64,000 bases of DNA from Candidatus Moraniibacteriota bacterium. Its GTDB lineage: Bacteria > Patescibacteriota > Minisyncoccia > Moranbacterales > UBA9337. Within the stretch, counting starts at the first letter, position 1, and the number at the start of each line of letters is the position of its first letter. Positions 14,992 to 64,000 of this stretch are shown one piece after another. The translations under genes were made by a program, and so were the position numbers. The DNA lies in assembly GCA_026985555.1 (NCBI GenBank), contig JALSQF010000010.1, forward strand, positions 26,112-90,111, given 5' to 3'. Below the pieces are notes generated by a model, which did no database searches, was not told where the DNA came from, and saw only the letters and a program-made list of their open reading frames with translations.

Positions 14992-15009
14992 TATGAAAAA
15001 GGAGGTAAA

Positions 15010-15207
15010 ATGAAAGAGTGCGCCTATGTTTTTTCAGGAAAGCAAATATATTATTGCGACAACTGTAAACAACATTTAGTAGAAATAAAAGAGAGTGAAG
15101 GATTAGTTTTTTTACAATGCAATAACTGCGAAAAAAAATTTTTTAAAATAAAAGGAAGTCAAAATATATATCCTTATGTTAAAATTTTATGTAAAAGAAA
15201 TAGCTGA
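15010..15207 (+). CDS. Small zinc-ribbon protein, hypothetical
   Basis: Two CxxC pairs (CDNCKQH...CNNCEKK) and a strong RBS (aaaggaggtaaaATG). Confidence 0.45.
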   Translation: MKECAYVFSGKQIYYCDNCKQHLVEIKESEGLVFLQCNNCEKKFFKIKGSQNIYPYVKILCKRNS

Positions 15208-15219
15208 TAATTTTCTTTA

Positions 15220-15270
15220 GGCAAACAGTTTGTTTGCTAATAGCACCAGTCTTTAAGACTGGTTTTTTTA
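15220..15270 (+). terminator. Rho-independent terminator (two hairpins plus a T-run)
   Basis: gcaaacagtttgtttgc and accagtctttaagactggt, followed by ttttttt. Confidence 0.7.
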
Positions 15271-15331
15271 TTCATTAATCAATGATATTATTATAAATAA
15301 GCATTTTCTATGTAATAAATAATTTTCAAAA

Positions 15332-16069: not shown

Positions 16070-16223
16070 TTAAAAAAGGATATTATAAATATTTTAAAAG
16101 CAACTAAGTTTTTTTAGCGCAATTTCCAAATTTTAATTTTTGAAAAATCCTAAAATTGAGTTTGAAAAAGTTAAGTTGAAAATTTAGTAAAAGTTTTCAT
16201 AAATTGATTAGGGTATAATTTAT

Positions 16224-16252
16224 TTGTCAATCAACAATTAGAGTGATATAAT
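16224..16252 (+). promoter_or_regulatory. Sigma-70-like promoter upstream of mraY
   Basis: TTGTCA-N17-TATAAT. Confidence 0.5.
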
Positions 16253-16274
16253 TTTTTTAGATAATTTTTTATTT

Positions 16275-17372: not shown

Positions 17373-17393
17373 TTTTTTTATTATTTTAAATTT

Positions 17394-18293: not shown

Positions 18294-18325
18294 ATTAATT
18301 TTAATTCTAATTAAAATAAAAAAAT

Positions 18326-19423
18326 ATGGAAAAAAAATATAAATATCTAATTGCTTTATTAGCGATAATAATTATAGGAATAGGATATTATTTTATTAGT
18401 GCAAGGCAAACATTAAGACAAAAAAGAATTAGAGAAATCAAACAAAAGGATGAAAAATTAGTTAAAGAAATGCCAGTGGTTAATCAAGGTCCTGTTAGTC
18501 CAATTAGTGGATTAAGTTGTGAAAATTGGAACCGTCGCCCTCTAGCTGTTATGCAGGCAGCTGATGTAGAAGCGCGTCCAGCAGCAGGATTTTCTCAAGC
18601 CGATATGGTAATAGAAATGCCGGTCATTACAGCTTCTATTACTCGGTTAATGGGAATTTATATTTGTAATTTGCCTCCAGAAGTAGGATCAATGAGAAGT
18701 TCGCGACATGATTTTATTCATTTAGCTAAAGGTTTAGATGCTATTTATGCCCATTGGGGCGGATCTCATTTTGCTAAAGAGATTTTAAATAAAAAAGTGA
18801 TAGATAATTTAAATTGTAATGATGATGGAGGAAGATCAGCCGGAAAATGTTGTTTTCGTAAGGCAGGAATGTCTAGAGGTGTAGATAGTGGTTATGCTCA
18901 TCCAACTAAATTATTAGAATGTGCTAAAGATTTTGGTTATAGATTAAAAGGGGAATTTTCTGGTTATCAACATCAAAAAGAATTAGCTCGCGACGAACGT
19001 CCTAAAGGTGGACATTTAAGAGTTGGTTTTGCTGGACCTTATGGTGTAAGTTACGATTATGATCCAGAAACAAACACTTATTTAAGAACATGGGGAGGAA
19101 AAGAAGATACTGATCGTAACAACGGACAACGATTAGCTCCTAAAAATGTTGTTGTGATGATGGCTAATAGTGAACAAATTGAAGGACAATACAATAATGT
19201 TCAGCTAGGTGATCCTTGGTATGATGTTACTGATTCTGGAGAAGCTCATTATTATCTTAACGGAAGAGTTTATAGAGGAACCTGGAAAAAGGACAAATCT
19301 AACATAGCTAGTAAATTATTTTTTTATGATGAAAAGGGAGAAGAAATGAAGTTTGTTCCTGGTCAAATTTGGGTAGAAATTCTAGAGCCAGGGCAAAATT
19401 TGAAATGGACCCCGGCGCTATAA
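18326..19423 (+). CDS. Membrane-anchored/secreted protein, DUF3048-like (YerB-like)
   Basis: N-terminal TM/signal anchor, Cys-rich region and GFSQADMVIEMPV block. Family assignment is by eye only. Confidence 0.4.
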   Translation: MEKKYKYLIALLAIIIIGIGYYFISARQTLRQKRIREIKQKDEKLVKEMPVVNQGPVSPISGLSCENWNRRPLAVMQAADVEARPAAGFSQADMVIEMPVITASITRLMGIYICNLPPEVGSMRSSRHDFIHLAKGLDAIYAHWGGSHFAKEILNKKVIDNLNCNDDGGRSAGKCCFRKAGMSRGVDSGYAHPTKLLECAKDFGYRLKGEFSGYQHQKELARDERPKGGHLRVGFAGPYGVSYDYDPETNTYLRTWGGKEDTDRNNGQRLAPKNVVVMMANSEQIEGQYNNVQLGDPWYDVTDSGEAHYYLNGRVYRGTWKKDKSNIASKLFFYDEKGEEMKFVPGQIWVEILEPGQNLKWTPAL

Positions 19424-19845
19424 ATAATATTCAACTTTTTAGCAGTTAAAATTTTTTATTTATTTTAAAACCCCCTGTTAGCAAAAAGCTACCAGGGGGA
19501 TTGTATTAGTCAATTAAATGGATATTCTTCTACGAAAAATATTAACAACAAAAAAGTTTGTACAAAGTAATCATTTTATAATTTTATATATGCTTTTATT
19601 ACACTTTTAATGGTAATGGCAATAAAATTTTGGTTATAAAATTTTACTAAATTTTTAAAAGCATTAATAATTGACAATGAATTAAGTTTAATTTTTTGAT
19701 TAGATTAATAAAATTATTCTAGAAATTATATAGGTTGTCCATATAAATTATTTTTATTTTTATCCTATTGTATATTATTTTTTCCTTATTCAATGTTAGT
19801 CTTTTTGTAAAAATAAAACTTATTTTTAATATTTATTCTTCTCTT

Positions 19846-19883
19846 TTTCTGGCTATTTAAATATCCATTTAAATAGCCAGAAA
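19846..19883. repeat. Palindromic repeat element, copy 1 (TTTCTGGCTATTTAAAT-ATCCAT-TTAAATAGCCAGAAA)
   Basis: Perfect 14-nt arms, intergenic position, flanked by T- and A-runs. Confidence 0.9.
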
Positions 19884-20028
19884 GAATTAATTTTGAAAAT
19901 ATACATATAAAACTAATAAAAATTTAATGTTTTAGAAGGTATTGACAGAACAGAAAAAATGTACTAAAACAACAGGTTAATTTAGTTATTTAAAAACTTA
20001 ATAAAAAATAAAAATCAAGGAGGAAAAG

Positions 20029-20850
20029 ATGAAAAAGATTATTTTGTTATTATTTTTATTTCTAGTCCAGGGTGGTTTTGTTGCATCTAGTTATTCTGGG
20101 CAACCAGAACAAAAAGAAGTAGTAAAGATGGAAGGAAATAATTTGATTATCTATCAAATTATTTCCTTGAAAATAGAGAAAAAACGTTTTTTAAATATAT
20201 TTTCACCAGAAGCATTGGCTCTAGTAACACAAATAACACAAACGCCAGAAATAAATTTAAAAAAAATTTATATGCTGGCGGAGGGGAAAGCCGAAAAGAT
20301 ATTATTTTCTCAAAAATTAGAGAAAATAATATTTGGATTTCCTTTGAAATATAAACTGAGAAATAATTACCTGTTCTTAAACAAAAGAACAGGTAGAATA
20401 GAAAAGAGGATAGAAATTGGAGAAGAGGATGCGTCAATTCTAACTCTAATGGCTGTATTGTCTATTCTTTCTCCGGGTGTATTTATATTTATGTATTATT
20501 TGCATTGCAAAGACTATTATTGCAAGCAAAATCAGATTATTTGGTTGTGTTGTTTATTACTTGTGGGCGCATTACTGAGCGCCTTATTTGGATTATTTGG
20601 TGGCGTTATTAGTTTGGTAGTGCCACTGTTTCTAGGTGCAGTGTTGGGATATGTTGCAGAATTCTATTTAAAAGAATTAAATGGAATTCTGTTTGGAGTA
20701 TATATGACATTATTTATTTATTTGCCAATCAGTTTTTTAGTTGAAAAAATAGGATGGCAAAATGCCATGGCCACTCAATATCTGCTAATGCTATTGTTAA
20801 TTTGTGTTATTGCTATAGCATTGGCGCAATTTATAAAAAAAAGAAAATGA
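20029..20850 (+). CDS. Integral membrane protein, hypothetical (signal peptide plus multiple TM)
   Basis: Strong RBS (aaggaggaaaagATG) and a hydrophobic profile. Confidence 0.45.
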   Translation: MKKIILLLFLFLVQGGFVASSYSGQPEQKEVVKMEGNNLIIYQIISLKIEKKRFLNIFSPEALALVTQITQTPEINLKKIYMLAEGKAEKILFSQKLEKIIFGFPLKYKLRNNYLFLNKRTGRIEKRIEIGEEDASILTLMAVLSILSPGVFIFMYYLHCKDYYCKQNQIIWLCCLLLVGALLSALFGLFGGVISLVVPLFLGAVLGYVAEFYLKELNGILFGVYMTLFIYLPISFLVEKIGWQNAMATQYLLMLLLICVIAIALAQFIKKRK

Positions 20851-20862
20851 ATAAAAATTTTA

Positions 20863-20900
20863 ACCCTCTCTAAAAAATTTCTTTTAGAGAGGGTTTTTAT
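20863..20900 (+). terminator. Rho-independent terminator
   Basis: accctctctaaaa / ttttagagagggt, followed by ttttatt. Confidence 0.7.
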
Positions 20901-20984
20901 TATAAAATAATAATTTACAAGTTTTAATTGGAATTTAAAGGTTGATTGATTTAATTTTAATCTTATTTCAATAGAAAGAAAAAA

Positions 20985-32423: not shown

Positions 32424-32454
32424 ACTCGTTTGGTTTTTAACCAGACGAGTTTTT
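32424..32454 (+). terminator. Rho-independent terminator hairpin (part of the left direct repeat flanking the GC-rich gene)
   Basis: ctcgtttgg-ttttta-accagacgag plus ttttt. A second copy with compensatory base changes lies at 33334-33366. Confidence 0.7.
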
Positions 32455-32455
32455 C

Positions 32456-32493
32456 TTTCTGGCTATTTAAATGGATATTTAAATAGCCAGAAA
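32456..32493. repeat. Palindromic repeat element, copy 2
   Basis: TTTCTGGCTATTTAAAT-GGATAT-TTAAATAGCCAGAAA; the centre is inverted relative to copy 1. Confidence 0.9.
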
Positions 32494-32570
32494 GAATTAG
32501 TTTTACAAATCTATTTATTATAAAAAACTAATAAGAATCTAATATTTAAACAATACAAAAATGCAAGGTA

Positions 32571-33333: not shown

Positions 33334-33366
33334 ACCCGTCTGTGGTTTTTAACCAGGCGGGTTTTT
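33334..33366 (+). terminator. Rho-independent terminator hairpin (right direct-repeat copy)
   Basis: cccgtctgtgg-ttttta-accaggcggg plus ttttt. Confidence 0.65.
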
Positions 33367-33367
33367 C

Positions 33368-33405
33368 TTTCTGGCTATTTAAATGGATATTTAAATAGCC
33401 AGAAA
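33368..33405. repeat. Palindromic repeat element, copy 3
   Basis: Identical in sequence to copy 2. Confidence 0.9.
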
Positions 33406-33513
33406 AAGAGTTGGTTTTCTATTTTTTATATTTATTATATTTTTTTATTTCAGCAGTTGATTTTTAATAATAAGAAAGTTAAAATTAAAAGGATTTTTTA
33501 ATTAAAATAATTT

Positions 33514-37206: not shown

Positions 37207-37225
37207 GTCTTATCTTTTCTTTAAT

Positions 37226-37275
37226 TTTCTGGCTATTTAAATATCCATTTAAATGGATATTTAAATAGCCAGAAA
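37226..37275. repeat. Palindromic repeat element, copy 4 (longest form, perfect 44-nt palindrome core)
   Basis: ctggctatttaaatatccatttaaatggatatttaaatagccag. Copies 1-3 look like centre-deleted versions. Confidence 0.9.
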
Positions 37276-37584
37276 AGATTTTGTTTTTCTAAAAATAAAA
37301 GTTTATTTAAATTATTTATAAGTATAAAGATAAAGCAGATTGTATTTTGAAAATACTGAATTGAAAGTTAGTAAAGTTGTTTACGAAAACTATTGACAAG
37401 AAAAAAATATTTTGTTAGTTTATACAAGGTGTTGTCAAAAAATAAATGTTATGCTAAAGTAAAAAATAAGTAAGGAGGTTTTTTTATTTGTTTTATTTTT
37501 TATTAATTTTTTAAATAATAAATATTAAAAAATATTAAACGATAGGCAGGGTGGTTAATCTCTGTCAATCGTCCAATAAAATCT

Positions 37585-51765: not shown

Positions 51766-53835
51766 ATGCAATTAATAAAAAAACTTATAAAAACCAATGA
51801 CAAATATGATTTATCAGTTTTTAGTAAGGAAAGTGTAGATGAACTAGAAAAAAGAATTTATGAAAAAAATAATAAACTTTATTTTGATTGTTTAGTCAGA
51901 GAAAAATCAATCCAAGTAAAACCAGAAGAAATTGTAAGACAACTAATGATTGATAAACTTTTGAAAGAATATAATTATCCCAAAGAACTTTTACAAGTAG
52001 AGTATACAGTTACTTTTGGAAGAGAGAAAAAATCAGCTGATATTGTTATTTTGAATAAAAAAGATAAAACAAGTCCTTATATAATTGTTGAAGTTAAAAA
52101 AGCAAGTGCCAAAGATGGCAAAGAGCAATTAAAATCATATACAAATGCAACAGGCGCACCTCTTGCTGTATGGACTAATGGTCAAGAAATAAATATATAT
52201 GAAAGGCTTGACCCAAACTATTTTGAGCCACTTTCAGATTTACCAAAATATGAAGAAACTATTGAAGATGTAAAACAAGAAATTTTCACTTATCTTGATT
52301 TGATGGTGAAAGACAAGCTTGCAAATGAAAGAAAATCTTTAAAAGATTTGATTTTAGAGCTTGAAGATGAAGTTTTGGCAAATGCAGGTGTAGATATTTT
52401 TGAAGAAGTTTTTAAACTGATTTTCACAAAACTTTATGATGAAATGCAAAGTGCAGATGATAGAATTCAGATAGAAAGAGATTTTGTTAGACTAAAAAGA
52501 CAAAAGCCAGAGCTTACAGATAAAGAAATTTTGCAAGGATTATTAAAAGAAAACAAAAATAATGTAGAAGGATACAGAAAACTTGAATTTAGAAGTAGGG
52601 GAGATGCTCATCATACAAAAGAAGTGATAAATAAGCTTTTTGAAAAGGCAAAAAGAAAATGGCCGGGTATTTTTGATGATGGAGAACCTCTTAGAATTAC
52701 CGATGAAAATCACTTACAAATTTGTGTTGGTTATTTACAAAATGTAAAACTTTTTAACTCAAATTTGCAAGTAATTGATGAAGCATTTGAATATCTTGTA
52801 AATAAATCAGCAAAAGGTGATAAAGGTCAATATTTCACACCAAGAAATGTTATAGATATGGCTGTTTATATGATAAACCCGAAGCCAAATGAATATGTAA
52901 TAGATACAGCAGCCGGCAGTTGCGGTTTTACAGTGCATACACTATTTAATGTTTGGAATAAACTTAAAAATCAAGGAAAAGCAAATTTTCATAATTTTTC
53001 AAATCAGAGGTTAACTCCTGAACAAATAGAATATACAAGTAAAGTTTTTGGTATTGATTTTGATGAAAAAGCAGTAAGAGTAGCAAAAACTCTAAATATG
53101 ATTGCAGGAGACGGAAAAACAAATGTAATTCATCTAAACTCACTTGATTTCACAAGATGGAATGAAAAGATAAAAGATAGAGAGTGGATGAGAAAATATG
53201 GCGAGGGGTATTATAGGCTGCTTGATTTAGCAGTAAATAGAGATGAACCAAAAGAATTCAATTTTGATATAGTTTTGACTAATCCTCCTTTTGCGGGAGA
53301 TATAAAAGATAATAGACTTTTAGCTCAATATGAAATAGCATATAAAGAAAATGGAAAAAGAGTATCAAAACTTAGTAGAGATATTTTATTTATAGAAAGA
53401 AATCTAAATATGCTAAAACCTGGTGGTAGAATGGCAATAATTTTACCACAAGGTAGATTTAACAATACTTCAGATGAAAGAGTCAGAGAATATATAATGA
53501 GTAAAGCAAGACTTATTGCTGTAATAGGACTTCATGTTAATACTTTCAAACCACATACAGGAACAAAAACTTCTGTTTTGTTTGTGCAAAAATGGAATGA
53601 TGACCCAAACAAAGGTCCATTAAATCCTTATAAAGAAGATTATGAAGTTTTTATGGCAGTAAGCGAAAAACCAGGAAAAGATAATTCAGGGCAAGAAGTT
53701 TACAAAACAGATCCTGAAACGGGAGAAAGGTTGCTTGACGAGCATGGGCATTTAATACAAGATCATGATTTGGAAGAAATAGCAAAAGAGTTTGAGAAGT
53801 GGGCTAAGAAGGAAGGGTTGAGTTTTTGGAAATAA
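51766..53835 (+). CDS. Restriction-modification subunit: N-terminal PD-(D/E)xK nuclease-like domain fused to a gamma-class N6-adenine DNA methyltransferase (HsdM-like; Type IIB/BcgI-A-like architecture)
   Basis: N-terminal D92...E109-V-K111 (SADIVILNKKDKTSPYIIVEVKK), resembling the HsdR_N endonuclease fold. MTase motif I VIDTAAGSCGF and motif IV TNPPFAG. No hsdR in the window. Confidence 0.7.
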   Translation: MQLIKKLIKTNDKYDLSVFSKESVDELEKRIYEKNNKLYFDCLVREKSIQVKPEEIVRQLMIDKLLKEYNYPKELLQVEYTVTFGREKKSADIVILNKKDKTSPYIIVEVKKASAKDGKEQLKSYTNATGAPLAVWTNGQEINIYERLDPNYFEPLSDLPKYEETIEDVKQEIFTYLDLMVKDKLANERKSLKDLILELEDEVLANAGVDIFEEVFKLIFTKLYDEMQSADDRIQIERDFVRLKRQKPELTDKEILQGLLKENKNNVEGYRKLEFRSRGDAHHTKEVINKLFEKAKRKWPGIFDDGEPLRITDENHLQICVGYLQNVKLFNSNLQVIDEAFEYLVNKSAKGDKGQYFTPRNVIDMAVYMINPKPNEYVIDTAAGSCGFTVHTLFNVWNKLKNQGKANFHNFSNQRLTPEQIEYTSKVFGIDFDEKAVRVAKTLNMIAGDGKTNVIHLNSLDFTRWNEKIKDREWMRKYGEGYYRLLDLAVNRDEPKEFNFDIVLTNPPFAGDIKDNRLLAQYEIAYKENGKRVSKLSRDILFIERNLNMLKPGGRMAIILPQGRFNNTSDERVREYIMSKARLIAVIGLHVNTFKPHTGTKTSVLFVQKWNDDPNKGPLNPYKEDYEVFMAVSEKPGKDNSGQEVYKTDPETGERLLDEHGHLIQDHDLEEIAKEFEKWAKKEGLSFWK

Positions 53836-53856
53836 TTTATTTTTAATGGAGGAGAT

Positions 53857-56115
53857 ATGATTAAAAAAATTAAAAAAATAAAAAACCTTGGAATATTTAA
53901 TGAATTTAGATGGAATTCATCTATTTTAGAATTTAAAAGATATAATTTATTTTATGGATGGAATGCATCAGGAAAAACTACTTTGACTACTATTTTTGAG
54001 TCATTGAATTTAAATATTACGAAATATTTTAAAGATGCGGGATATGAGATAGAAACTAATAATGGTGATATTTATAAACAAAATGATATTTTTCCAACAA
54101 AAGTTAGAGTTTTTAATCAGCATTACATAGATGAAAATATACATATTTCTAATGGAAAAACAAAACCTATTTTTTTATTGGGTGAAGAAAGTAAAGAATT
54201 AAAAGAAAAAATAGATAATTGGGAAGATGAAAAAATCAAATTAAAAAATATAAAAATAGAATTAGAAAGAGTGAAAGAGCAAAAGGAAAAAGATATTAAT
54301 AATATTTTTACAAATACTGCTAGAATTATAGGTGAAAATTTATCTGGTTCATCAGTCAGAAATTATAGAAGAAATGATGCAAAAGATGATTTTGAAAAAT
54401 TAGCTCAGAAAGAACTATTGTCACAAGAAGATTTAGAAAAATATAAAAAGATAAAAGAACAAAAGAAAAAAGAAAAGATTGATGAAATAGTATTTACTTT
54501 AAGGCAAGACAAAATTTTAGAAGAAATAAAAAACATTTTAAAAAAATCTGTTAATTCTATTATAATAGCAAGACTAAAAAATAATCCAGATATTTCTGCT
54601 TGGGTTGAGAAAGGTATTGAAATTCATAAAAAACACAATTCTAAAACTTGTGAATTTTGTGGTCAAAGTTTACCAAATGGTTTAATAGAAAAACTTTTGC
54701 TTTATTTTAATGAAGAAGATAAAAAATTAAAGCAAATTATTGATGAAAAAATAAATTTTTTAAATAATAAATTTAATGAATTAAATAATTTAAACATACC
54801 TAAGAAAGTTGAATTATATGATGACTTGTATAATGATTTTGAAAGCAGATTAAGTTCCTTTAATAAAGAAAGGATAAATTTATCAAATGAGATTTCAGAA
54901 TTAATCAAACATTTACAAAACAAAAAATTTAAGACTAGTGAACCTATGAAAATTACATTTTATTTTAACAATTCATTTGAAGAAGCATTAAAAAATTTAA
55001 ATGAAATAATAAAAAAGCATAATAATAAAACAGAAAATTTACAAGAGCAAAAAGATGAGGCATTTAAAAAAATAAAAAACCATTATCTAAGTGAGATATG
55101 GGATAAGGTGAAAGAAAATGAAAGTAAAATTAGTGAAATAAACAATAATATAACTATCATTAATAATGGTGGTAGTTTTACTTATAAAGGTAAAAACATT
55201 GAAACAATTGAAACAATAGGGCTTTCAAAATTAAATAATGAAATTTTAGAGGCAAAGGCTAAAATATCTGATTTACATAAATCAGTTGATAAATTGAATA
55301 AGTATTTAGAAACATTTTTAGGTAGAAATGAAATAAAATTTAAGGTATCTGATGAGCAAGATGGATTTATAATATTAAGAAATAATGAGATTGTAAGCAA
55401 TTTGAGTGAAGGTGAAAAAACAGCAATTGCTTTTGTTTATTTTATAATTCATTTGCAAGATAAAGATTTTAATATAAACAATGGAATTGTAGTTGTAGAT
55501 GATCCTGTATCTAGTTTTGATTCAAGTTCTGTTTTTCAAGCCTTTGCATTTATGAGAGAAGCTGTTAAAGATGCAAAGCAAATCTTTATTTTTACTCATA
55601 ATTTTGATTTTTTTAAATTAACTTTAAATTGGTTTAAGAATTCAAGAAGAAATTGGAGTTGTTATCAAATTAAAAATAAAATGATTAAAGAAAAAGAGAA
55701 TACAAAAAGAATAGCTTATATAGATAAAATCGATCATTTTATTGAAAAATATACTACAGAATATGAATATTTGTTTAAGGTATTGTATGAATTTAATAAT
55801 TCAGACCCAAGTAATATAGAAGATGTTTATAATATACCAAACATTGGTAGAAAAGTTTTGGAAACATTTTTAACATTTAGAATTCCTACTTCAGAAAGTT
55901 TGTATCAAAAATTACAGAAAATAAATTTTGATGAAAATAAAAAGACCTCAATATACAAGTTTTTTAATGATTTATCACATTTGACAGGTAGTGGTTTTCA
56001 CCCATCATTGATACAAGAATCTAAGAAAAATGTAAAATATTTGTTAGAAATGATAAAAAGTTCTTTTAAGGAACATTATGATATTTTAGAAAATACTTTA
56101 TCTAACCAAAACTAA
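53857..56115 (+). CDS. RloC/PrrC-like ABC-type ATPase with a coiled-coil CxxC zinc-hook insert and a C-terminal R-x3-E...H module (putative anticodon nuclease)
   Basis: Walker A GWNASGKTT (residues 34-42), a long coiled-coil insert containing CEFC (residues 265-268), Walker B IVVVDDPVSSFD, and a C-terminal GRKVLETF...LSH. It sits between the MTase and S genes, and its stop is 2 nt before the hsdS start. Confidence 0.55.
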   Translation: MIKKIKKIKNLGIFNEFRWNSSILEFKRYNLFYGWNASGKTTLTTIFESLNLNITKYFKDAGYEIETNNGDIYKQNDIFPTKVRVFNQHYIDENIHISNGKTKPIFLLGEESKELKEKIDNWEDEKIKLKNIKIELERVKEQKEKDINNIFTNTARIIGENLSGSSVRNYRRNDAKDDFEKLAQKELLSQEDLEKYKKIKEQKKKEKIDEIVFTLRQDKILEEIKNILKKSVNSIIIARLKNNPDISAWVEKGIEIHKKHNSKTCEFCGQSLPNGLIEKLLLYFNEEDKKLKQIIDEKINFLNNKFNELNNLNIPKKVELYDDLYNDFESRLSSFNKERINLSNEISELIKHLQNKKFKTSEPMKITFYFNNSFEEALKNLNEIIKKHNNKTENLQEQKDEAFKKIKNHYLSEIWDKVKENESKISEINNNITIINNGGSFTYKGKNIETIETIGLSKLNNEILEAKAKISDLHKSVDKLNKYLETFLGRNEIKFKVSDEQDGFIILRNNEIVSNLSEGEKTAIAFVYFIIHLQDKDFNINNGIVVVDDPVSSFDSSSVFQAFAFMREAVKDAKQIFIFTHNFDFFKLTLNWFKNSRRNWSCYQIKNKMIKEKENTKRIAYIDKIDHFIEKYTTEYEYLFKVLYEFNNSDPSNIEDVYNIPNIGRKVLETFLTFRIPTSESLYQKLQKINFDENKKTSIYKFFNDLSHLTGSGFHPSLIQESKKNVKYLLEMIKSSFKEHYDILENTLSNQN

Positions 56116-56117
56116 CT

Positions 56118-57467
56118 ATGGCACAAATAAGCATAATAAACATAAAAAATATAATCCAAGCAAAAAGGTTTGATGCTGAGTATTTTAAACCGGAGTATTT
56201 GAAGGATGATTTTTATTTAGAAAATAAAGGCTTTTTCTTATTGTATGAAATTTCAAATGTTAAAGGGGGGAAAAGATTACCATTAGGAGAAAAGTTTTCA
56301 GAAAAAGGAGTTCCTTATATTAGGGCAGAAGATATAAAAAATGATTTTGTTGAATATGAAAATGTACCAAGAATTTCTTTACAATTACATGAAAAATTAA
56401 AAAAATATCAAACTAAAAAAGATGATATATTGTTAACTATTGTAGGTTCTGTTGGAGCTATTGGTATTGTAAATTTTAATTTAGAAAGATGCAATTTAAC
56501 AGAAAATGCAGCTAAAATAACTAATTTAGATTTTAATAAATATAAATCAGAAGTGATATTTTCTTTTTTGTTATCTAAATATGGTCAAAATCAAATAAAA
56601 AGAGAAAAAGTAGGAACAGTTCAAGAAAAATTATCATTAGATAGACTAAGAAAATTTAAAATTCCTCTTCTCCCTCAATCCTTCCAACTCCAAATAGAAA
56701 AAATAGTAAAAGAAGCTTATGAAAAACAATCTCTTTCAAAAGAACTTTACAAAGAGGCAGAACAGATTTTGCTTAAAGAATTGGATTTGAAAGATTTCAA
56801 ACCAAAACATAAATTGACTTTCACCACAACAAAAAAAGAAATAGAACAGGATAAAAGATTTGATGCAGAATATTTTCAGCCAAAATATGAAGAAATTATT
56901 GAGAAAATAAAAAGTTATAAGGGGGGATTTGATAAAGTTGGGGAAGTAGTAAATATAAAAGATAAAAATTTTACATCAAAAGATTATGTAAAATATAAAT
57001 ATGTTGCATTAGCTGATATTTCAAATGATGGATATATTCAAAGTTTTGAAGAAGATTTCGGTAAAAATTTACCTACAAGAGCAAGAAGACTTATAAATAA
57101 AGGAGATGTAATTATTTCTTCTATTGAAGGTTCTTTAAATTCTTGTGCTTTAATTGAAGAAGAATTTGATAATTCAATTTGTTCTACAGGTTTTTATGTT
57201 GTAAATTCTGAAAGAATAAATCCTGAGACATTATTAGTTTTAATGAAATTATATCCAATACAAAAACTGTTGAAAAAAGGGTGTAAAGGAACAATACTTA
57301 CTGCAATACCAAAAGATGAATTAGAAAAAATTGTTTTACCAATTATTGACAATCAAACCCAACAAAAAATTTCTCAAAAAATACAAGAGAGCTTTAAACT
57401 TAAAAAAGAGTTAAAAGAGCTTTTGGAAAAAGCCAAAAAAATGGTAGAAGAGGAAATAGAAAAATGA
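56118..57467 (+). CDS. hsdS: Restriction-modification specificity subunit (HsdS-like, two target-recognition domains)
   Basis: Duplicated conserved segments RFDAEYFKPEYL and RFDAEYFQPKYEEI separating two variable TRDs. Central and C-terminal conserved helices (LQIEKIVKEAYEKQ, ELKELLEKAKK). Confidence 0.8.
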   Translation: MAQISIINIKNIIQAKRFDAEYFKPEYLKDDFYLENKGFFLLYEISNVKGGKRLPLGEKFSEKGVPYIRAEDIKNDFVEYENVPRISLQLHEKLKKYQTKKDDILLTIVGSVGAIGIVNFNLERCNLTENAAKITNLDFNKYKSEVIFSFLLSKYGQNQIKREKVGTVQEKLSLDRLRKFKIPLLPQSFQLQIEKIVKEAYEKQSLSKELYKEAEQILLKELDLKDFKPKHKLTFTTTKKEIEQDKRFDAEYFQPKYEEIIEKIKSYKGGFDKVGEVVNIKDKNFTSKDYVKYKYVALADISNDGYIQSFEEDFGKNLPTRARRLINKGDVIISSIEGSLNSCALIEEEFDNSICSTGFYVVNSERINPETLLVLMKLYPIQKLLKKGCKGTILTAIPKDELEKIVLPIIDNQTQQKISQKIQESFKLKKELKELLEKAKKMVEEEIEK

Positions 57468-57570: not shown

Positions 57571-57598
57571 CATTAAAGGGGTCATTAAAGGGGTCATT
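57571..57598 (+). repeat. Tandem 12-bp repeat GGGGTCATTAAA (about 2.7 units), second locus
   Basis: ccacattaaaggggtcattaaaggggtcatt. Same unit and orientation as 10464-10499; 34 bp upstream of the AbrB-like ORF. Confidence 0.9.
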
Positions 57599-57833: not shown

Positions 57834-58742
57834 ATGCAAAAAATAATTGAATTTTTTCAAAAAATCGGTTTGTTGCGAATTAACTCCGGAGATTATTATA
57901 CCGGAGAATTTTCATCAAAAGTTAAAAAAAATAAGAACGAAGAAAAAGTTACCCCTAATCAATCTAATAAAAACAAGGATAAAAAAAAATCAAGTTTACC
58001 TTTAATTTTTTGGATAATAATTTATTTATTATTAGCTATTTCCTTTTTCTTGTCTATATTTTCTAGTTTTACAGCTGTAATTATTATCTTAATTATTTGG
58101 CTCTTTTTTATTTTTATTTTAAAAAGATTTTCGTTTAGTTTGCCAGTGGCTATAGTTAGTTTGGTTTTAGTTTTCTCTTTCTCCTTTTTTTATTTGATAT
58201 TTTTTACAAACAATCATCAAGATAATCAGCAGAAAAAAACTGTCAGTCAAAAAAACTTACCTCAATTAGAAATGGTTGTAATTAAATCTCCCGCTGTTAT
58301 TAATTGTGACAAAGAAAAAAGCATACTTGAAGTGAAAGCTAAGAATGTTGGTAAAAAAGCGTTAACTTTTAACGAATTTCAAAATCATCAATATGATTTT
58401 GAAATTTGCGATGGAGACAAGGAACATAAAAATGGTGGTCGTTCTTGTTTTTCGGCTTTAGGCGGTTATTTAAAGGTGAATGATTTTGGAATAATTAAAG
58501 AAGGGGAGAGTAAAATTATTCAATTAGTTACACCAACGGCAACTAAACCAGATAATGCTATTGCCAGTTTTTTAGATAAAACTAAAATCAACGGAAAATA
58601 CAAATATTATATCAGTTTTGTTAAAATGGAATCAGCCAAAAAGAAACCACTCATTAGTCAATCTAATCTTTTCACTGTGCAAACCAATATAATGAACGCT
58701 ACCAATGAATACATTAAAACTGATTGTTATAAGACAAATTAG
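57834..58742 (+). CDS. Membrane protein with 3 TM helices and a C-terminal extracytoplasmic domain, hypothetical
   Basis: A Cys-containing C-terminal domain (CDKEKS...CDGDKEH...RSCFSALGG) with no recognisable family. Confidence 0.4.
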   Translation: MQKIIEFFQKIGLLRINSGDYYTGEFSSKVKKNKNEEKVTPNQSNKNKDKKKSSLPLIFWIIIYLLLAISFFLSIFSSFTAVIIILIIWLFFIFILKRFSFSLPVAIVSLVLVFSFSFFYLIFFTNNHQDNQQKKTVSQKNLPQLEMVVIKSPAVINCDKEKSILEVKAKNVGKKALTFNEFQNHQYDFEICDGDKEHKNGGRSCFSALGGYLKVNDFGIIKEGESKIIQLVTPTATKPDNAIASFLDKTKINGKYKYYISFVKMESAKKKPLISQSNLFTVQTNIMNATNEYIKTDCYKTN

Positions 58743-58760: not shown

Positions 58761-58830
58761 CCAATTATCTCTAAAAATCAGTATTTAGTATTTAAAAGTT
58801 AAAAAATAATTTTTACAAAAATTTTATTCT
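58761..58830. repeat. Left arm of an imperfect inverted-repeat pair of about 75 bp (partner at 63769-63846)
   Basis: ccaattatctctaaaaatcagtatttagtatttaaaagttaaaaaataatttttacaaaaattttattct; by eye about 85% reverse-complement identity to the partner, including an exact 21-mer. Confidence 0.8.
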
Positions 58831-59750
58831 TGTTTCTCTTGTTTTTTGTTTTTTTTGTTATGAAACTTTTGATGAATTTTTTTTAATTGCTGATTGGTAA
58901 TGTGAGTGTAAATTTGAGTAGTGGTAATAGAAGAATGGCCTAACATACTTTGCACGCTTCTGATATCAGCACCATTAGATAAAAGATCAGTGGCAAAGCT
59001 ATGTCTTAAAGTATGAGGATGAACATCTTTAGTGATACCAGCTTTAGTAGCGTAATATTTAACAATTCTTTGTATACTTCTAGATGTTAAACGTAAATTA
59101 TCTTCCTTTTTATTTTTAGTTAGACGAATAAAAAGAGCTTCATCTATATCAGTCCGCTGTTGCAAATATTTTAAAAGCGCTTGACGGGCAGTTTCCGAAA
59201 GGAAAACTAGTCTTATTTTCCCGCCTTTTCCTTTAACACTAAACTCTTGTTTATCTAAATTAATTTGATCGCGATTTAAATTAACTAGTTCGGAAACACG
59301 CAAACCAGTGGAGAAGAGTAATTCTAAAATTGCTCTATCACGTAAACCTTTAAAGCCGTTTTCATCGGGAGATTGAAGTAATTTTTCTAATTCATCTTTG
59401 GTTAGAAATTCAATTTCTTTTTGTGGATTTTTACCTACTTCTATTTTTTCTGCTGGTAAAGTTTTTATATCACGAACGGCCAGATATTTTAAAAAATTGC
59501 GTAAAGCAATAATGTGATAATTTTGAGTAGATTTTTCTAGTTTTTTTCCTTTTTCATCTTCAAAACGATTTAAATACAAACGATATTGTCTTACTTTTTC
59601 TAGGGTGATATCTTCTGGTTGGCTAATTTGAGTAAAATCTAAAAAACGTTTTAAATAATGATGATAATTTTCTATGGTTTTAAGGGAACGGTTTACTTCT
59701 ATTTCTAAATGCTCTAAAAATTGATTAACTAATTTTTCTAAAGTAGTCAT
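58824..59750 (-). CDS. xerC: Tyrosine site-specific recombinase (XerC/XerD family)
   Basis: N-terminal core-binding domain; catalytic R...HxxR...Y region (HTLRHSFAT, GHSSITTTQIYTH). The stop codon lies inside the left inverted-repeat arm. Confidence 0.8.
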   Translation of the reverse strand: MTTLEKLVNQFLEHLEIEVNRSLKTIENYHHYLKRFLDFTQISQPEDITLEKVRQYRLYLNRFEDEKGKKLEKSTQNYHIIALRNFLKYLAVRDIKTLPAEKIEVGKNPQKEIEFLTKDELEKLLQSPDENGFKGLRDRAILELLFSTGLRVSELVNLNRDQINLDKQEFSVKGKGGKIRLVFLSETARQALLKYLQQRTDIDEALFIRLTKNKKEDNLRLTSRSIQRIVKYYATKAGITKDVHPHTLRHSFATDLLSNGADIRSVQSMLGHSSITTTQIYTHITNQQLKKIHQKFHNKKNKKQEKQE

Positions 59751-59911
59751 AAGGATTTATTAATTGATTATATTATTATAACATTGTTTGAAAAATATGA
59801 AAAATTGTAATTTTTTGCTAATTATGTTTATGTGTAAAACATTATAAACATTGAAAAATATTAAAAATAGTATTATGATAATTAATATTTAAACTCTTTT
59901 AGGAAAATATT

Positions 59912-61447
59912 ATGTCAGATTTAGAAAAAAAGAAAAAAGAAATTAGAGTAAGATTTGCTCCTTCTCCCACAGGTGAACTTCACATTGGAGGTTTAAGAAC
60001 AGCTTTAACTGATTTTCTTTTTGCCCAACAAAATAAGGGTAAATTTATTTTAAGAATAGAGGATACCGATCAAAAAAGATTAGTAAAGGGATCTATTAAA
60101 AGAATTATCCATTCCTTAGAATGGTCTGGAATAAAAATTGATGAGGGGGTTTTTTTAAATCAAAAGGGAGAAATTATTCAAAAGGGGAAGTTTGGACCTT
60201 ATATTCAATCTCAACGTTTAAAAATTTATCAAAAATATGTAGAAAAATTACTTCAAGAAGGAAAAGCTTACCGATGTTTTTGTTCTGCTCAAAGATTAGA
60301 AAAAATGAGAAAAGAACAATTAGCTCAAGGAGAAGCTCCTCATTACGATAGAAAATGTCTTAATCTTACTCAAAAAGAAATTGATGAAAAAATTCAAAAA
60401 GGAGAAAAATATGTTGTTCGTTTTAAAATTCCTTCAGGAAAAACTAGTTTTAATGATTTAGTTTATGGAAAAATAGAAGTAAAAAATGAAACTTTAGATG
60501 ATCAAGTTATTTTAAAATCAGATGGTTTTCCCACCTATCATCTCGCTTCTGTGGTGGATGATTATTTAATGAAAATAACTCATGTTTTTCGGGGAGCAGA
60601 ATGGATTTCTAGTACACCTAAACATATATTACTTTATCAAGCTTTAGGATGGGAGAAAAGTCAGCCGTATTTTTGCCATATGCCTAATATTTTGAACAAA
60701 AATAAACGAAAGCTTTCCAAAAGAGAGGGAAGTGTTAGTGTGCAAGATTTTAAACAACAGGGTTATCCTGCTGAAGCGTTAATTAACTTTATTGCTTTAT
60801 TGGGCTGGAACCCTAAAACAGAACAAGAAATTTTTACCTTAAAAGAACTAATAGAGCAGTTTGATATTAAAAAAATGAATAAATCAGGAGGAATTTTTGA
60901 TTTAGATAGATTAAACTGGATTAGTGCCCAACACATAAAAAGAATGTCCGTGGAAAAACTTTATGGATTAGCTTTGCCTTTTTTAGAAAAAAAGAATTTC
61001 TTTCAAGAGTGGAAAGAAAAAAATAAATTTATAAATCAAGAAGAATATCTAAAAAAAGTTTTAGAAGTTGAAAAAGAACGATTAGAAAAATTTACTGATG
61101 TAGGAGAAAAAAATAAATTTTTCTTTCAAGAAAGCGGGACTATAAAAATTTCTTTTGATGAAATGCGTTGGAAAAAGCAAACTAATCAAGATATTCAAAA
61201 AAATCTTAAAAAAGCTTATAATACATTATATAATATATCAAAAAACAACTGGACAAGAGCTAATATTGAAAAAGAATTATTAAAAACAGCTCAAGAGAAG
61301 AGAGGAGAGCTTCTTTTTCCCTTAAGAGCAGTTTTAACTGGTCAAAAATATTCTCCTTCTCCCTTTGAAGTGGCTTGGGTCTTAGGAAAGAAAGAAACAC
61401 TAAGTAGAATTAATCGGGCATTGGATTTGTTTAAAAATTTAGATTAA
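59912..61447 (+). CDS. gltX: Glutamate--tRNA ligase
   Basis: HIGG motif (PSPTGELHIGGLRTAL) and KMSKS-like KLSKR; class I aaRS catalytic domain plus an anticodon-binding tail. Confidence 0.9.
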   Translation: MSDLEKKKKEIRVRFAPSPTGELHIGGLRTALTDFLFAQQNKGKFILRIEDTDQKRLVKGSIKRIIHSLEWSGIKIDEGVFLNQKGEIIQKGKFGPYIQSQRLKIYQKYVEKLLQEGKAYRCFCSAQRLEKMRKEQLAQGEAPHYDRKCLNLTQKEIDEKIQKGEKYVVRFKIPSGKTSFNDLVYGKIEVKNETLDDQVILKSDGFPTYHLASVVDDYLMKITHVFRGAEWISSTPKHILLYQALGWEKSQPYFCHMPNILNKNKRKLSKREGSVSVQDFKQQGYPAEALINFIALLGWNPKTEQEIFTLKELIEQFDIKKMNKSGGIFDLDRLNWISAQHIKRMSVEKLYGLALPFLEKKNFFQEWKEKNKFINQEEYLKKVLEVEKERLEKFTDVGEKNKFFFQESGTIKISFDEMRWKKQTNQDIQKNLKKAYNTLYNISKNNWTRANIEKELLKTAQEKRGELLFPLRAVLTGQKYSPSPFEVAWVLGKKETLSRINRALDLFKNLD

Positions 61448-61475
61448 TTATATACAAAACTAAAACTAAATAAAA

Positions 61476-62810
61476 ATGTTAAAATTATTAAAATTTGTTT
61501 CTGTTAGTATAATTTTATTCTTTTTTCTTTTTTCTCCTTATTATATTTTTGCTGAAGATACTACCAATTATACAGATAATACAAATGGATTGAGTAAGCA
61601 AAAACAAAAAGAATATGAAAGTAAAACAAAAAAAATTGAAAAGCTTAATGAAAAAGCTAGAATTTATCAAAAAATTTTAGATATTAAACGCAATCAAAAA
61701 ACAACACTTTATCAACAATTACAAAATATAAATAATGAAATAAAATCATTACAAGAAGAAATAACCACTCAAAAAGAAAAAATAATCACACTCAATGATA
61801 AGATTGCTGTTTTAGAAAAAAGAATTACAGAAAATCAAAAAAAAATTAAAGAACAAAAAAAGCTTTTATCTTATATGGTGCGTTCTTATTATGAATACGC
61901 TCAACATGATTGGTATCCTGCCATTTTAAGTAATGAAGGTGTAGCTGGTTTTCTAACTAATAAAGATAGATTAACACAATCAGGAGATAAGATTAAAAAA
62001 TTATTGGGAGCATTGAAGTCTCTTAAAAATAATTTAGAAAACAAAAAAAGATCTTTAACTAACAAAAAGAAAGAAGTTATAGAGATGCAAAGGAAATTAG
62101 AAGAAAAAAATCTTTATTTGATAAGCAATAAACAACGGAAAAACAATTTATTAATTCAAACCAAAGGAGAAGAAGCTAGATATCAAAAAAAACTAGAGAG
62201 AATAAAGGCAGAAAAAATGCAATTGTTAGGTGATATTGATGAGTTATTTAATGCTAATAGTGCTAATATTAATGTATGGAAAGCTAATCTTCCGCAACCA
62301 AAAAGTGGTTTAGCTTCTTTACGTTGGTATTATTCACAAAAAGACTCTCGTTGGGGAAATAAAACTATAGGTAACTCTAACAGTTTGATGAAAAATTATG
62401 GATGTGCTATTACATCTATTTCCATGGTCTTTACTTATCATGGTAATCGTATTTCTCCAGGATTAATGTGTAAACAATCCATTTTTGATTGGGATTTAAT
62501 TAAATGGCCTAATACTTGGGGCGGATTGTCTTTGGATAAGGGTGTAGGACATTTTCATGGAAACATAAACTGGAAAACTATAGATAAAAACTTAAAAAAG
62601 AAAAATCCAGTGGTAGTTTATATTAGAGCAGGGCGCAAAGGGGGTCATTATGTCGTAATTCATCATAAGGATAAAAAAGGAAGATATATAGTTCACGATC
62701 CTTATTTTGGACCGAACATTTTTTTAAGCTCTACAATGTCGTTGCTTTCTAAATTATATAAAGTTCCTATTTCAAAAAGATCAATAGATCAAATGATTTT
62801 ATATAAATAA
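61476..62810 (+). CDS. Secreted coiled-coil protein with a C-terminal papain-like (C39-like) cysteine-peptidase domain (PcsB-like architecture; putative cell-wall hydrolase)
   Basis: A signal peptide, roughly 230 aa of coiled coil, and a C-terminal domain with NYGCAITSISMVFTYHG (Cys), GGHYVVIHH (His) and HDP. Confidence 0.55.
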   Translation: MLKLLKFVSVSIILFFFLFSPYYIFAEDTTNYTDNTNGLSKQKQKEYESKTKKIEKLNEKARIYQKILDIKRNQKTTLYQQLQNINNEIKSLQEEITTQKEKIITLNDKIAVLEKRITENQKKIKEQKKLLSYMVRSYYEYAQHDWYPAILSNEGVAGFLTNKDRLTQSGDKIKKLLGALKSLKNNLENKKRSLTNKKKEVIEMQRKLEEKNLYLISNKQRKNNLLIQTKGEEARYQKKLERIKAEKMQLLGDIDELFNANSANINVWKANLPQPKSGLASLRWYYSQKDSRWGNKTIGNSNSLMKNYGCAITSISMVFTYHGNRISPGLMCKQSIFDWDLIKWPNTWGGLSLDKGVGHFHGNINWKTIDKNLKKKNPVVVYIRAGRKGGHYVVIHHKDKKGRYIVHDPYFGPNIFLSSTMSLLSKLYKVPISKRSIDQMILYK

Positions 62811-62848
62811 AAAATTTAAGAATGTCTATTTTTTATTAAGTAAAGAGA

Positions 62849-62875
62849 GGGTTGTGTCGCACAACCTTTTATTAT
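62849..62875 (+). terminator. Rho-independent terminator
   Basis: ggttgtg-tcg-cacaacc followed by ttttattattattttttt. Confidence 0.7.
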
Positions 62876-62937
62876 TATTTTTTGATATATATTTGCTAAA
62901 AAATATTTTTTTAGTGATTGATAAGAATTTTTTGATG

Positions 62938-63011
62938 TGGGCGTATTCCGACTTGAACGGAAGACCTCTTGCGTGTCGAGCAAGCGCTCTAACCAGCTGA
63001 GCTATACGCCC
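62938..63011 (-). tRNA. tRNA-Val (anticodon GAC), CCA not encoded; unusual C at position 33
   Basis: Reverse complement folds as acceptor GGGCGTA/TACGCCC, D-stem GCTC/GAGC, anticodon stem CTTGC/GCAAG, loop TCGACAC and T-loop TTCAAGT. Confidence 0.7.
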
Positions 63012-63768
63012 AAATTTAAATTTTAAATAAATATATTTTTTGTAATTTTAATTAATTTATTTATTTAGTTAAAACTAAATATTATATTATATCATAATAT
63101 GTAATATGTATAGTATTATAAATTTTTTTATATATATTTATATATGAAATTACATAAACCATATACATACTTGTATAAATCATATACATATATGTATATG
63201 ATTATATAACAAATAGTATGTTGTAATGAAATAATAAAAAGAAAAAACAAAAAAGGAAATAAATTAAATATAGAAACATAAATATATAATATAAATATTT
63301 AATATATATCAAAATGATAACTAAATTTAATTTTATATATTTTTTATAATATAAAAAATATATAAAATTAAAAAACAAAACTTAATCTAATAAAAAACAA
63401 GTAAACAAAAAATTTTTATATACGTTACATGTATAATCACAATAAAGATATTTAAAACAAATAAAAGATAAAAAATAAAAGTAATTTTATTTGTGTAAAT
63501 GTCGTCCAATCTACATTGTGCGACACATATAATATAAGTATCTATGTATGTATATATAAATATATACGAAAGCAATAAGTAAAAATATAAACAAGCCATT
63601 TATATATTTATTTGTATATATATAAATATTACCCTATTCCCTTTTTTAAAACTCTTAAAATTAAAAAAAATTTAAAAGATTAAAAGTGAAGTTTTATTTT
63701 TAATTAAAATTAATTAGAATAAAAAAAATTATTATTATATAGAAAATAGAAAATAAAAAAACAAAAAT
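63012..63768. repeat. Extremely AT-rich low-complexity tract with short TA/CATA-type micro-repeats
   Basis: Runs of atatacata and tatgtatatg and poly-A/T; only a dubious 70-aa antisense ORF. Confidence 0.6.
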
Positions 63769-63846
63769 AAAAATAAAATATTTTTTGCAAAAAATATTTT
63801 TTAAATTTTAAATACTAAATACTGATTTATTTTTAGAGATAATTTA
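63769..63846. repeat. Right arm of the inverted-repeat pair (partner of 58761-58830)
   Basis: aaaataaaatattttttgcaaaaaatattttttaaattttaaatactaaatactgatttatttttagagataatt. Confidence 0.8.
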
Positions 63847-64000
63847 TATTTTATATATTTAATTTAAATTCTAGTAATGAATAATAATTGAGTTAAAAGA
63901 AGTCCTATTATATCAAAATTGTCTAAATATTTCATTTGATTTTTGTTTAATATTAATAAGACTGAATAATTATTTATTTTTTGATGAGATGGAATCAATA

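Follow-up and report, generated by a model that had tools for sequence, protein, structure and literature searches.

The 64,000-nucleotide window, from a Moranbacteria-type chromosome of the candidate phyla radiation, contains two non-coding sequence arms in inverted orientation (58763..58822 and 63784..63846), which we explain, with slightly less than even confidence, as a local inverted duplication, now inert, that is connected with the relocation of the recombinase gene xerC. The arms would represent a lineage-specific, two-copy inverted duplicate of the non-coding spacer of approximately 60 bp that follows the xerC stop codon. This 60-bp copy may have been made locally during the rearrangement of xerC, for example by patch copying, template switching, or staggered-break repair. 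The second copy is located 4.9 kb from the first, following a different, unrelated membrane-protein gene. The pair would now be inert, i.e., a by-product of rearrangement rather than a working recombination site, an inversion switch, or a transposon end.

The gene content that the sequence-only reading had described for the 5-kb segment was located in full. The left arm core (58763..58822) fills the spacer between p302 and xerC, running from 20 nt past the p302 stop codon (58740-58742, plus strand) to the xerC stop codon (58824-58826, minus strand), and the recombinase gene was correctly placed as ending at the inner edge of this arm. The p302 gene (57834..58742, plus strand), which encodes a 302-aa membrane protein of unknown function, reads with its 3' end into the left arm, while xerC (58824..59750, minus strand) encodes a Xer-type tyrosine recombinase of 308 aa with Pfam Phage_integrase and SAM-like domains. 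Next come gltX, encoding glutamyl-tRNA synthetase (59912..61447, plus strand), a gene for a secreted coiled-coil and Peptidase_C39_2 protein (61476..62810, plus strand) with a canonical GC-hairpin terminator at its 3' side (62846-62870), and a tRNA-Val (GAC) gene (62937..63011, minus strand). A non-coding AT-rich tract with 12% GC (63012..63783) then leads to the right arm core (63784..63846), which is inverted relative to the left arm. Beyond its outer end, at a distance of 17 nt, lies the stop codon (63864-63866, minus strand) of p237, a gene for a 237-aa membrane protein that runs off the window. The AT-rich tract differs by indels between strains and has no Rfam match. Its interpretation as a decayed inverted xerC copy was rejected, as neither tblastn nor sensitive blastn detected a remnant and the homology ends at the stop codon, and an oriC was rejected on the basis of zero DnaA boxes. 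Homologues of the FtsW fragment in the right flank were found as fragments only, with at most 69% identity. The segment borders a strain-variable defence island, which holds a Type I RM/RloC locus in one strain and CRISPR-Cas in another; the Type I RM locus is 1.3 kb from the segment. An hsdS inverton beside this locus was considered and rejected, since only one hsdS is present, and neither a fragment nor a repeat of hsdS in inverted orientation accompanies it.

The inverted repeat proved to be real. In a shuffled-sequence significance test, local alignment of the arms scored 112, far above the dinucleotide-shuffle null (mean 31.6, sd 5.1, maximum 57), and the runner-up, in which either arm was paired with a different stretch of 141 nt, scored 65. 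A repeat finder called the arms at 58775-58853 and 63750-63828, with 79 nt and 84% complementarity. Alignment of the reverse complement of 58761-58830 with 63769-63846 gave 64 matches, 6 mismatches, and 8 gap columns; the identity of approximately 85% that had been estimated by eye over the whole length thus amounts to 82% over all columns or 91% without gaps, but the similarity is significant only in the intergenic part of approximately 60 nt. This significant core, 58763-58822 versus 63784-63846, aligned with a score of 92, with 54 of the 57 aligned bases matching, 3 mismatches, and one 4-nt indel. Extension of the arm into the coding tail of xerC scored 31 versus a null of 26 +/- 4, and the xerC-coding part of the reported repeat is compositional. 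The homology begins exactly at the xerC stop codon, and none was detected into the coding sequence. The exact 21-mer reported earlier (TTAAATACTAAATACTGATTT) is present at 58775-58795 on the minus strand and at 63808-63828 on the plus strand, and no third site was found even at 3 mismatches, for which the chance expectation is 0.02. The arms share two perfectly identical blocks of 21 nt and 16 nt, contain two tandem AGTATTT heptamers, and match sharply at their outer ends (AATTATCTCT). Their outer 37 nt are identical except for one 4-nt indel, which could reflect constraint or gene conversion; all 3 substitutions fall in the inner part, a distribution that is not significant (P ~0.06).

Five independent assemblies agree letter for letter on the left arm and three do so on the right arm, which rules out an assembly artefact. 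In approximately 88 kb of DNA of this species only two copies were found, 4.9 kb apart. Searches of 74 related loci with blastn-short and nhmmer yielded nothing beyond chance; the arms are absent from the relative L078, the XerC of which is 82% identical, and from 22 Moranbacteria loci. A 20-mer scan of metagenome contigs, a collection that does not include this species, returned 5 chance matches in unrelated organisms only, and the same scan of viral contigs gave no arm match. The arms diverge from each other by approximately 5% plus indels, compared with 0.2-0.9% between strains. Taken together with the absence from L078 and other relatives, this divergence suggests a duplication that is younger than the genus and older than the split of the strains.

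The recombinase passed the XerA-type NCBIfam model (252.7 versus a cutoff of 220) and remained below the cutoffs of the XerC and XerD models, and its orthologues across Moranbacteria share approximately 70% identity. Judged from these matches, it is the conserved chromosomal housekeeping Xer of Patescibacteria. A typical Moranbacteria xerC is a lone opposite-strand gene with LysM/CHAP on one side and pcrA on the other, and the wider context (F4-F3-LysM/CHAP, xerC, pcrA-ksgA-...-comM) is kept in 16-20 of 22 Moranbacteria loci. This LysM/CHAP-xerC-pcrA context is lost here, and L078 has yet another one. From this loss of the context conserved in relatives, comparison of the loci shows that xerC has moved in this lineage and now occupies a position immediately upstream of gltX. 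For genome work on Patescibacteria, this xerC neighbourhood, conserved in Moranbacteria and broken in this genus, may be of use. That the duplication of the spacer was tied to this relocation seems plausible but is circumstantial, because no donor or intermediate arrangement was found, as there is no genome between 82% and 100% XerC identity.

The neighbours of xerC tell a different story from that of the recombinase gene itself. In a genus-level relative, gltX likewise comes after the ribosomal-protein operon and points the same way, and the pairing of gltX with the peptidase gene also occurs in the 69% relative L084. By this synteny, the gltX-peptidase pair is in its ancestral place and orientation, not inverted. 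The suggestion that the arms mark the junctions of an ancient inversion of the whole segment is consequently disfavoured, since the orientation of gltX relative to the ribosomal-protein operon matches that of the relative.

The same position of gltX bears on the possibility that a 5-kb mobile element carries the recombinase and has the arms as its terminal inverted repeats. Such a reading would draw on the sharply matching outer ends (AATTATCTCT) and on the tyrosine recombinase gene at one end, but we find it scarcely credible: the flanks (ATTCC on the left, TATAT on the right) form no target-site duplication, there is no transposase, the gltX-peptidase cargo is in its ancestral chromosomal position, the recombinase is a core Xer orthologue, and there is no second unit, nor anything in the viral or metagenome scans. 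The doubt that the sequence-only reading had itself expressed about a mobile element was therefore well placed.

The adjacency of the arms to a recombinase gene raises a further alternative, namely that they are targets of this Xer-type enzyme, either as boundaries of an invertible 5-kb segment or as inverted Xer sites of a dif-like or accessory kind. The gene abuts the left arm, the arms contain the perfect 21-nt and 16-nt blocks, and the enzyme is of the single-recombinase XerA type, for which the site is kept beside the gene in single-Xer systems (PMC5357621). Moreover, 3 relatives have, immediately beyond the 3' end of xerC, an element of approximately 100 nt bounded by 16-nt inverted repeats, and in one of them its orientation is opposite (L013 versus L016). 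An enrichment of repeats beside xerC was rejected, as relatives hold 4-7 such repeats per 20 kb and this adjacency is expected by chance. The inversion switch that had been proposed found no backing in the assemblies, all five of which show a single orientation, with contigs that cross the arms unbranched, although such counts reflect the majority state only. Both arms follow the stop codons of the outer genes (by 20 nt and 17 nt) and face the xerC stop codon and the non-coding tract on their inner sides, so that a flip would alter no promoter-gene or coding junction. In addition, the recombinase is a conserved housekeeping orthologue and not a lineage-specific or dedicated invertase, and the GC skew at third codon positions (GC3 skew) of xerC, gltX, and the peptidase gene fits, weakly, a long stay in the present orientation.

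The arms were also searched for the dif-like site that had been suggested, and at 9 or more matches out of 11 per half-site the two arms have no 11-nt half-site dyad with a spacer of 6-8 nt in common. The sole dyad of this kind (63774-63801) belongs to the right arm, at a point where its homology with the left arm fades. The canonical dif pattern was not found in the arms and had one chance-level match outside them, and neither the canonical dif nor the AAAWCATATAC half-site motif recurs. A dif site would be expected as a single copy at the terminus and to be conserved among related species, whereas here there are two copies, the GC3 skew reveals no replichore switch (with a right flank of 5.7 kb), and the arms are missing from L078 and the 22 Moranbacteria loci. 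On balance, we regard a role of the arms as Xer targets as distinctly unlikely. The more specific proposal that the housekeeping XerA-type Xer may flip the 5-kb segment, including its own gene, gltX, and tRNA-Val, at low frequency via the arms as non-canonical sites has, in our estimate, a slender chance of being correct. If it were true, the difference in orientation between L013 and L016 would be another sign of this activity, and demonstration of inversion or of Xer binding would make this a first example, for this phylum, of a chromosomal inversion driven by Xer.

Location at the replication terminus was considered in its own right, with the arms either serving as polar, Ter-like fork-trap sites or arising from template switching at the terminus. 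Gene orientation and raw GC skew both turn from plus to minus at the AT-rich tract within the segment, the left side of which is dominated by the plus strand over at least 74 kb, and the orientation of the arms fits a fork trap. However, the GC3 skew does not support a terminus at this location. On the left side it amounts to +0.14 for minus-strand genes and +0.39 for plus-strand genes, for which a second replichore would give approximately -0.14 and -0.39; to the right of the tract, within the 5.7-kb flank, the plus-strand GC3 skew is still positive, with +0.04 for minus-strand genes (n=5) and +0.61 for the lone plus-strand gene. The orientation flip is thereby reduced to a mere cluster of lagging-strand genes, like that at 1962-7025. 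This phylum is not known to have a Tus or RTP homologue, and we consider a terminus function of the arms very improbable.

The placement of the arms behind genes offers a further explanation, in which they form a common cis element at the 3' end of the unrelated membrane-protein genes p302 and p237, acting, for example, as an unconventional signal for termination or 3' processing or, via the tandem AGTATTT heptamers, as a protein-binding site. In agreement with such an element, each arm is met in the same orientation by the gene reading into it, starting 20 and 17 nt past that gene's stop codon, their best-conserved part is the outer block nearest to p302 and p237, and p302, xerC, and p237 lack the canonical GC-hairpin terminator that other genes in the genome possess. 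Conversely, neither strand shows a significant secondary structure (z -0.56 to +0.27), only two copies occur in the approximately 88 kb, the 21-mer has no related site at 3 mismatches, the proteins encoded upstream of the arms are unrelated, and the arm sequence is conserved in no relative. A 3'-end element is in our view rather unlikely. The arms were likewise rejected as an RNA gene, terminator, or promoter, on the basis of fold z values around zero and the lack of consensus sites, and Rfam yielded nothing for the arms at thresholds up to E<=1. The idea that p302 and p237 are paralogues, which would make the repeat part of a larger gene duplication that has diverged, was discarded, as BLASTP detected nothing.

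For the inert duplication that we prefer, the fold z values close to zero, the lack of a promoter or terminator consensus, of an Rfam match, and of a common 11-6/8-11 dyad all point to arms that are probably without function. The equal orientation of the arms and their nearly equal distances from the stop codons (17 and 20 nt) argue against it, as these would not be expected of a random scar. Several intergenic repeat families occur in this genome and in its relatives, which makes small repeated spacers ordinary in this clade. If the inert duplication holds, the arms are an ordinary by-product of rearrangement and their value is chiefly negative: a recombinase gene beside an inverted repeat is insufficient to call a switch or mobile element, in particular when the recombinase is a housekeeping Xer.

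Among comparable known systems, inversion by tyrosine recombinases is exemplified by the Xer-like systems of Mycoplasma and Ureaplasma (PMC3599477) and by hsdS epigenetic invertons (PMC7672463). In invertons, including the fim switch, a pair of inverted repeats is accompanied at one boundary by the gene of a tyrosine recombinase, as it is here, where a Type I RM locus also lies at a distance of 1.3 kb. This locus departs from them in showing one orientation only in the assemblies, in having both arms after stop codons so that nothing is switched, in lacking an inverted hsdS copy, and in its recombinase, which is a housekeeping Xer. The pdif modules of Acinetobacter plasmids and the single-recombinase modules XerS/difSL and XerH/difH (PMC5357621, PMC12907356) provide a second comparison. 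As in single-Xer modules, a XerA-type single recombinase has a repeated sequence directly beside its gene, and pdif modules are bounded by inverted Xer sites as the arms are inverted; unlike both, the arms lack a common 28-31 bp core of two ~11-bp half-sites around a 6-11 bp spacer, are unconserved in relatives, and lie at no demonstrable terminus.

The dispersed or locally duplicated intergenic repeats of small AT-rich genomes, represented by tandem-unit hairpins in the Moranbacteria relatives L006, L009, L010, and L077 and by a hairpin family in this window, resemble the arms in being short (40-120 nt), non-coding, species-specific, unconserved between species, and located after stop codons, and also in their short tandem units (AGTATTT x2 in the arms). 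They are self-complementary hairpins with several copies per 20-60 kb, whereas the arms have no self-fold and two copies. Finally, inverted duplications at rearrangement breakpoints, as described by the staggered-break or template-switch model, are best documented for inversions in Drosophila. The present locus does not fit a single, simple inversion of the whole segment, because the orientation of the gltX-peptidase pair relative to the ribosomal-protein operon is, unlike in those cases, unchanged. The likeness lies in the duplication itself: either end of a rearranged segment carries one copy of what had been a short, single-copy spacer, the two copies being inverted relative to each other, and the gene beside it here, xerC, has moved.

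The two arms form a genuine inverted repeat of approximately 60 nt that starts precisely at the stop codon of xerC (58824-58826). A repeat finder placed the arms at 58775-58853 and 63750-63828 (79 nt, 84% complementary, 4,896 nt apart), and alignment over the span proposed in the sequence-only reading yielded 64 matches, 6 mismatches, and 8 gap columns, i.e., 82% of columns, in agreement with the identity of about 85% with small indels estimated there by eye. The exact 21-mer that had been pointed out within the arms occurs at two sites only within the window, with up to three mismatches permitted (chance expectation 0.02). The local alignment score of the arms (112) exceeded both the scores of dinucleotide shuffles (31.6 ± 5.1, maximum 57) and the highest score (65) that either arm reached with the remaining 141-nt windows of the 64 kb, so that the repeat survives the shuffled-sequence check and AT-driven similarity is ruled out. 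Significance is restricted to the intergenic core, 58763-58822 versus 63784-63846 (score 92; 54 matches, 3 mismatches, and one 4-nt indel, with identical blocks of 21 nt and 16 nt), and the similarity over the lysine-rich xerC coding tail (score 31, null 26 ± 4) is a matter of composition, which sets the boundary of the repeat at the stop codon. No third copy was found within approximately 88 kb of DNA of this species (window and fetched loci).

Stop codons precede both arms. The left arm lies 20 nt from the stop of p302, a plus-strand gene for a 302-aa membrane protein, and the right arm 17 nt from the stop of p237, a minus-strand gene for a 237-aa membrane protein that is complete in the extended ENA assembly; the two proteins show no relationship to each other. 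Enclosed between the arms are xerC (-), gltX (+), a gene for a Peptidase_C39_2 protein (+) that has a canonical hairpin terminator, tRNA-Val (-), and a 0.77-kb tract of 12% GC. Because of the position of the arms behind stop codons, a crossover inside them would leave every coding sequence, and every promoter-gene junction that can be recognised, as it is. The two arms share one orientation and lie at almost equal distances behind genes without ordinary terminators, which would fit an element shared by these 3' ends, an explanation that we consider possible but unlikely. Folding of both strands of both arms gave z values from -0.56 to +0.27, sigma-70-like or terminator-like sites were not prominent in the arms, and Rfam returned no match to them at gathering thresholds nor at E<=1.

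The arms abut a single-type Xer gene and share the 21- and 16-nt identical blocks, and they could on that basis be non-canonical Xer targets, which we regard as distinctly unlikely. A scan for dif-type cores (11-nt inverted half-sites, 6-8 nt spacers) detected no dyad that the two arms share; a single one (63774-63801) is confined to the right arm, where homology decays, and stronger dyads lie outside the arms, namely a perfect 24-bp palindrome in the AT tract (63179-63202) and a perfect 30-nt dyad in the p302 coding sequence (58376-58405). The canonical dif pattern gave a single chance-level match, outside the arms. The dif-like site suspected in the arms was thus not recovered, either as a shared 11-nt dyad or as a canonical match. 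The dyad in p302 (ATTTCAAAATCA TCAATA TGATTTTGAAAT) has 12-nt arms and a 6-nt spacer, lies 360 nt from the left arm, and is expected approximately 0.05 times by chance in the region scanned.

Exact-protein look-ups recovered other assemblies of the locus: ENA ERZ27262668 (99.8% identical, reaching 5.7 kb beyond the window end), NCBI GCA_054024795.1 (97.9% identical), and the Logan assemblies SRR8439172 and SRR33214773; relatives belong to Candidatus Moranbacteria/Moraniibacteriota and other Patescibacteria. The segment has the same orientation in every assembly, and contigs cross the arms unbroken. The arms are identical in all copies (left arm in five assemblies, right arm in three), which says little, since the neighbouring genes of these strains differ by merely 0.2-0.9%. 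Among 74 related loci the arm sequence was undetectable, and a 20-mer scan gave chance matches only in the metagenome collection and zero in the viral collection.

In the genus-level relative, gltX is located downstream of the ribosomal-protein operon in the orientation seen in the window, and a 69% relative likewise has a homologous peptidase-like gene behind gltX; this synteny and recurring pairing show that the gltX-peptidase block is ancestral and has not been inverted. Such a block counts against a simple whole-segment inversion and against a mobile element, in line with the doubt about the latter voiced in the sequence-only reading, and we give scarcely any credence to the arms being transposon ends. 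Three independent assemblies of the genus-level relative stop approximately 200 nt past gltX, which suggests a repeat or a hard-to-assemble, perhaps AT-rich, tract matching the peptidase/AT-tract region here.

The AT tract (63012-63783) is non-coding and lies upstream of tRNA-Val. Between strains it varies by indels only: GCA_054024795.1 has deletions of 32 nt and 48 nt and a duplication of 10 nt, and a 47-nt palindrome (63326-63372) is deleted there. The tract contains zero DnaA boxes, has no Rfam match, and shows no remnant of a degraded xerC gene. At the tract, raw GC skew changes sign and the genes switch strand (window and ENA extension), which raises the idea of a replication terminus, with the repeat pair as fork trap or dif neighbourhood. 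The coding-strand effect on skew equals the replication effect in size in this genome, and raw skew alone can therefore mimic a terminus. At third codon positions, in plus-strand reading, GC skew left of the tract was +0.39 for plus-strand genes (n=62) and +0.14 for minus-strand genes (n=9), and right of it +0.61 (n=1) and +0.04 (n=5), versus approximately -0.14 and -0.39 expected for a second replichore. The third-position skew thus keeps its sign, over a covered right flank of just 5.7 kb, and the switch is probably just a lagging-strand gene cluster, as at 1962-7025. The terminus reading is without positive support, and both it and a fork trap are very improbable.

The recombinase has Phage_integrase and SAM-like domains, passes only the XerA-type NCBIfam model (252.7 vs 220) while remaining under the XerC and XerD cutoffs, and has thousands of close homologues, with orthologues of approximately 70% identity in Moranbacteria and 55% in Saccharibacteria and Peregrinibacteria. 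Clustering of neighbour proteins at 22 Moranbacteria-level loci revealed a common context of two unknown proteins, LysM/CHAP, xerC alone on the opposite strand, pcrA/uvrD, ksgA, G5/lytic transglycosylase, and comM, as displayed by loci L004-L021, L065-L068, and L077 (each xerC ± 5 kb). Among the loci clustered, this context is absent solely from the window species and its nearest relative, in which an 82% identical XerC is encoded between dprA and a radical-SAM gene, and none of the genes next to xerC in the window adjoins xerC at any other locus compared. The loss of a context conserved elsewhere, together with the unique neighbours, indicates that xerC is the housekeeping Xer and has been relocated in this lineage. 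As the most economical account, we tentatively favour the arms being a local inverted duplication of the post-xerC spacer: xerC would have moved to its present site, the spacer behind it would have been duplicated locally and inverted at that time, and the resulting pair would now be without function. We infer both that duplication and relocation are linked and that the arms are neutral.

The neighbouring defence island varies by strain (51766-57467 in the window versus 12518-20927 in the GCA_054024795.1 locus) at one and the same place, between shared flanks. In the window it comprises a Type I RM system of hsdM, a 752-aa RloC-like ATPase, and hsdS, and in GCA_054024795.1 a GIY-YIG gene with Cas2, Cas1, Cas4, and a 1138-aa putative effector, hsdS being reduced to a remnant of approximately 60 codons. 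Comparison of hsdS in the window (56118-57467) with that of the ENA assembly (L094, 1-1215), where it is broken into two ORFs, showed that the first target-recognition domain is replaced between strains (residues 1-194 approximately 32% identical, residues 195-449 98%). An hsdS inverton (compare PMC7672463), through which the recombinase would have had a part to play at this locus, was rejected because there is no inverted hsdS copy; the variation is allelic exchange.

Relatives carry multi-copy, species-specific intergenic elements of tandem 6-8 nt units forming long hairpins, often next to xerC, though not preferentially so. The window harbours several lone palindromes and a dispersed family of near-perfect hairpins (TTCTGGCTATTTAAAT..ATTTAAATAGCCAGAA; ~19846-19886, 32453-32496, 33365-33418, and 37225-37276), intergenic and after stop codons, whose members are likely to be terminators or REP-like elements. 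Short repeated spacers are therefore frequent here; unlike these elements, the arms are non-hairpin and a close pair. A 28-nt tandem array of a 12-nt unit (CATTAAAGGGGT, 2.3 copies) is present in two distant intergenic spacers (57571-57598 and 10469-10496), and both Logan contigs of the locus start exactly at this array. Directly 3' of xerC, three Moranbacteria species carry a GC-richer element of approximately 100 nt (L013 10914-11028, L011 6708-6839, L016 10924-11022), bounded by 16-nt inverted repeats (TTAAAAGTATATGTTT ... AAACATATACTTTTAA) and reversed in L016 (minus strand, 82% identity), which may represent an RNA gene or a small element of invertible or MITE-like type.

The locus resembles invertons and pdif-type modules in outline only, by its repeat pair and tyrosine recombinase; it showed none of the tested features that define those systems, having neither switchable junctions nor a dedicated invertase, no dif-type core or target-site duplications, and no sign of conservation or mobility. 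The arms are best filed as a small inverted duplication, or a low-copy repeat between genes, of an ordinary kind beside a relocated housekeeping gene.
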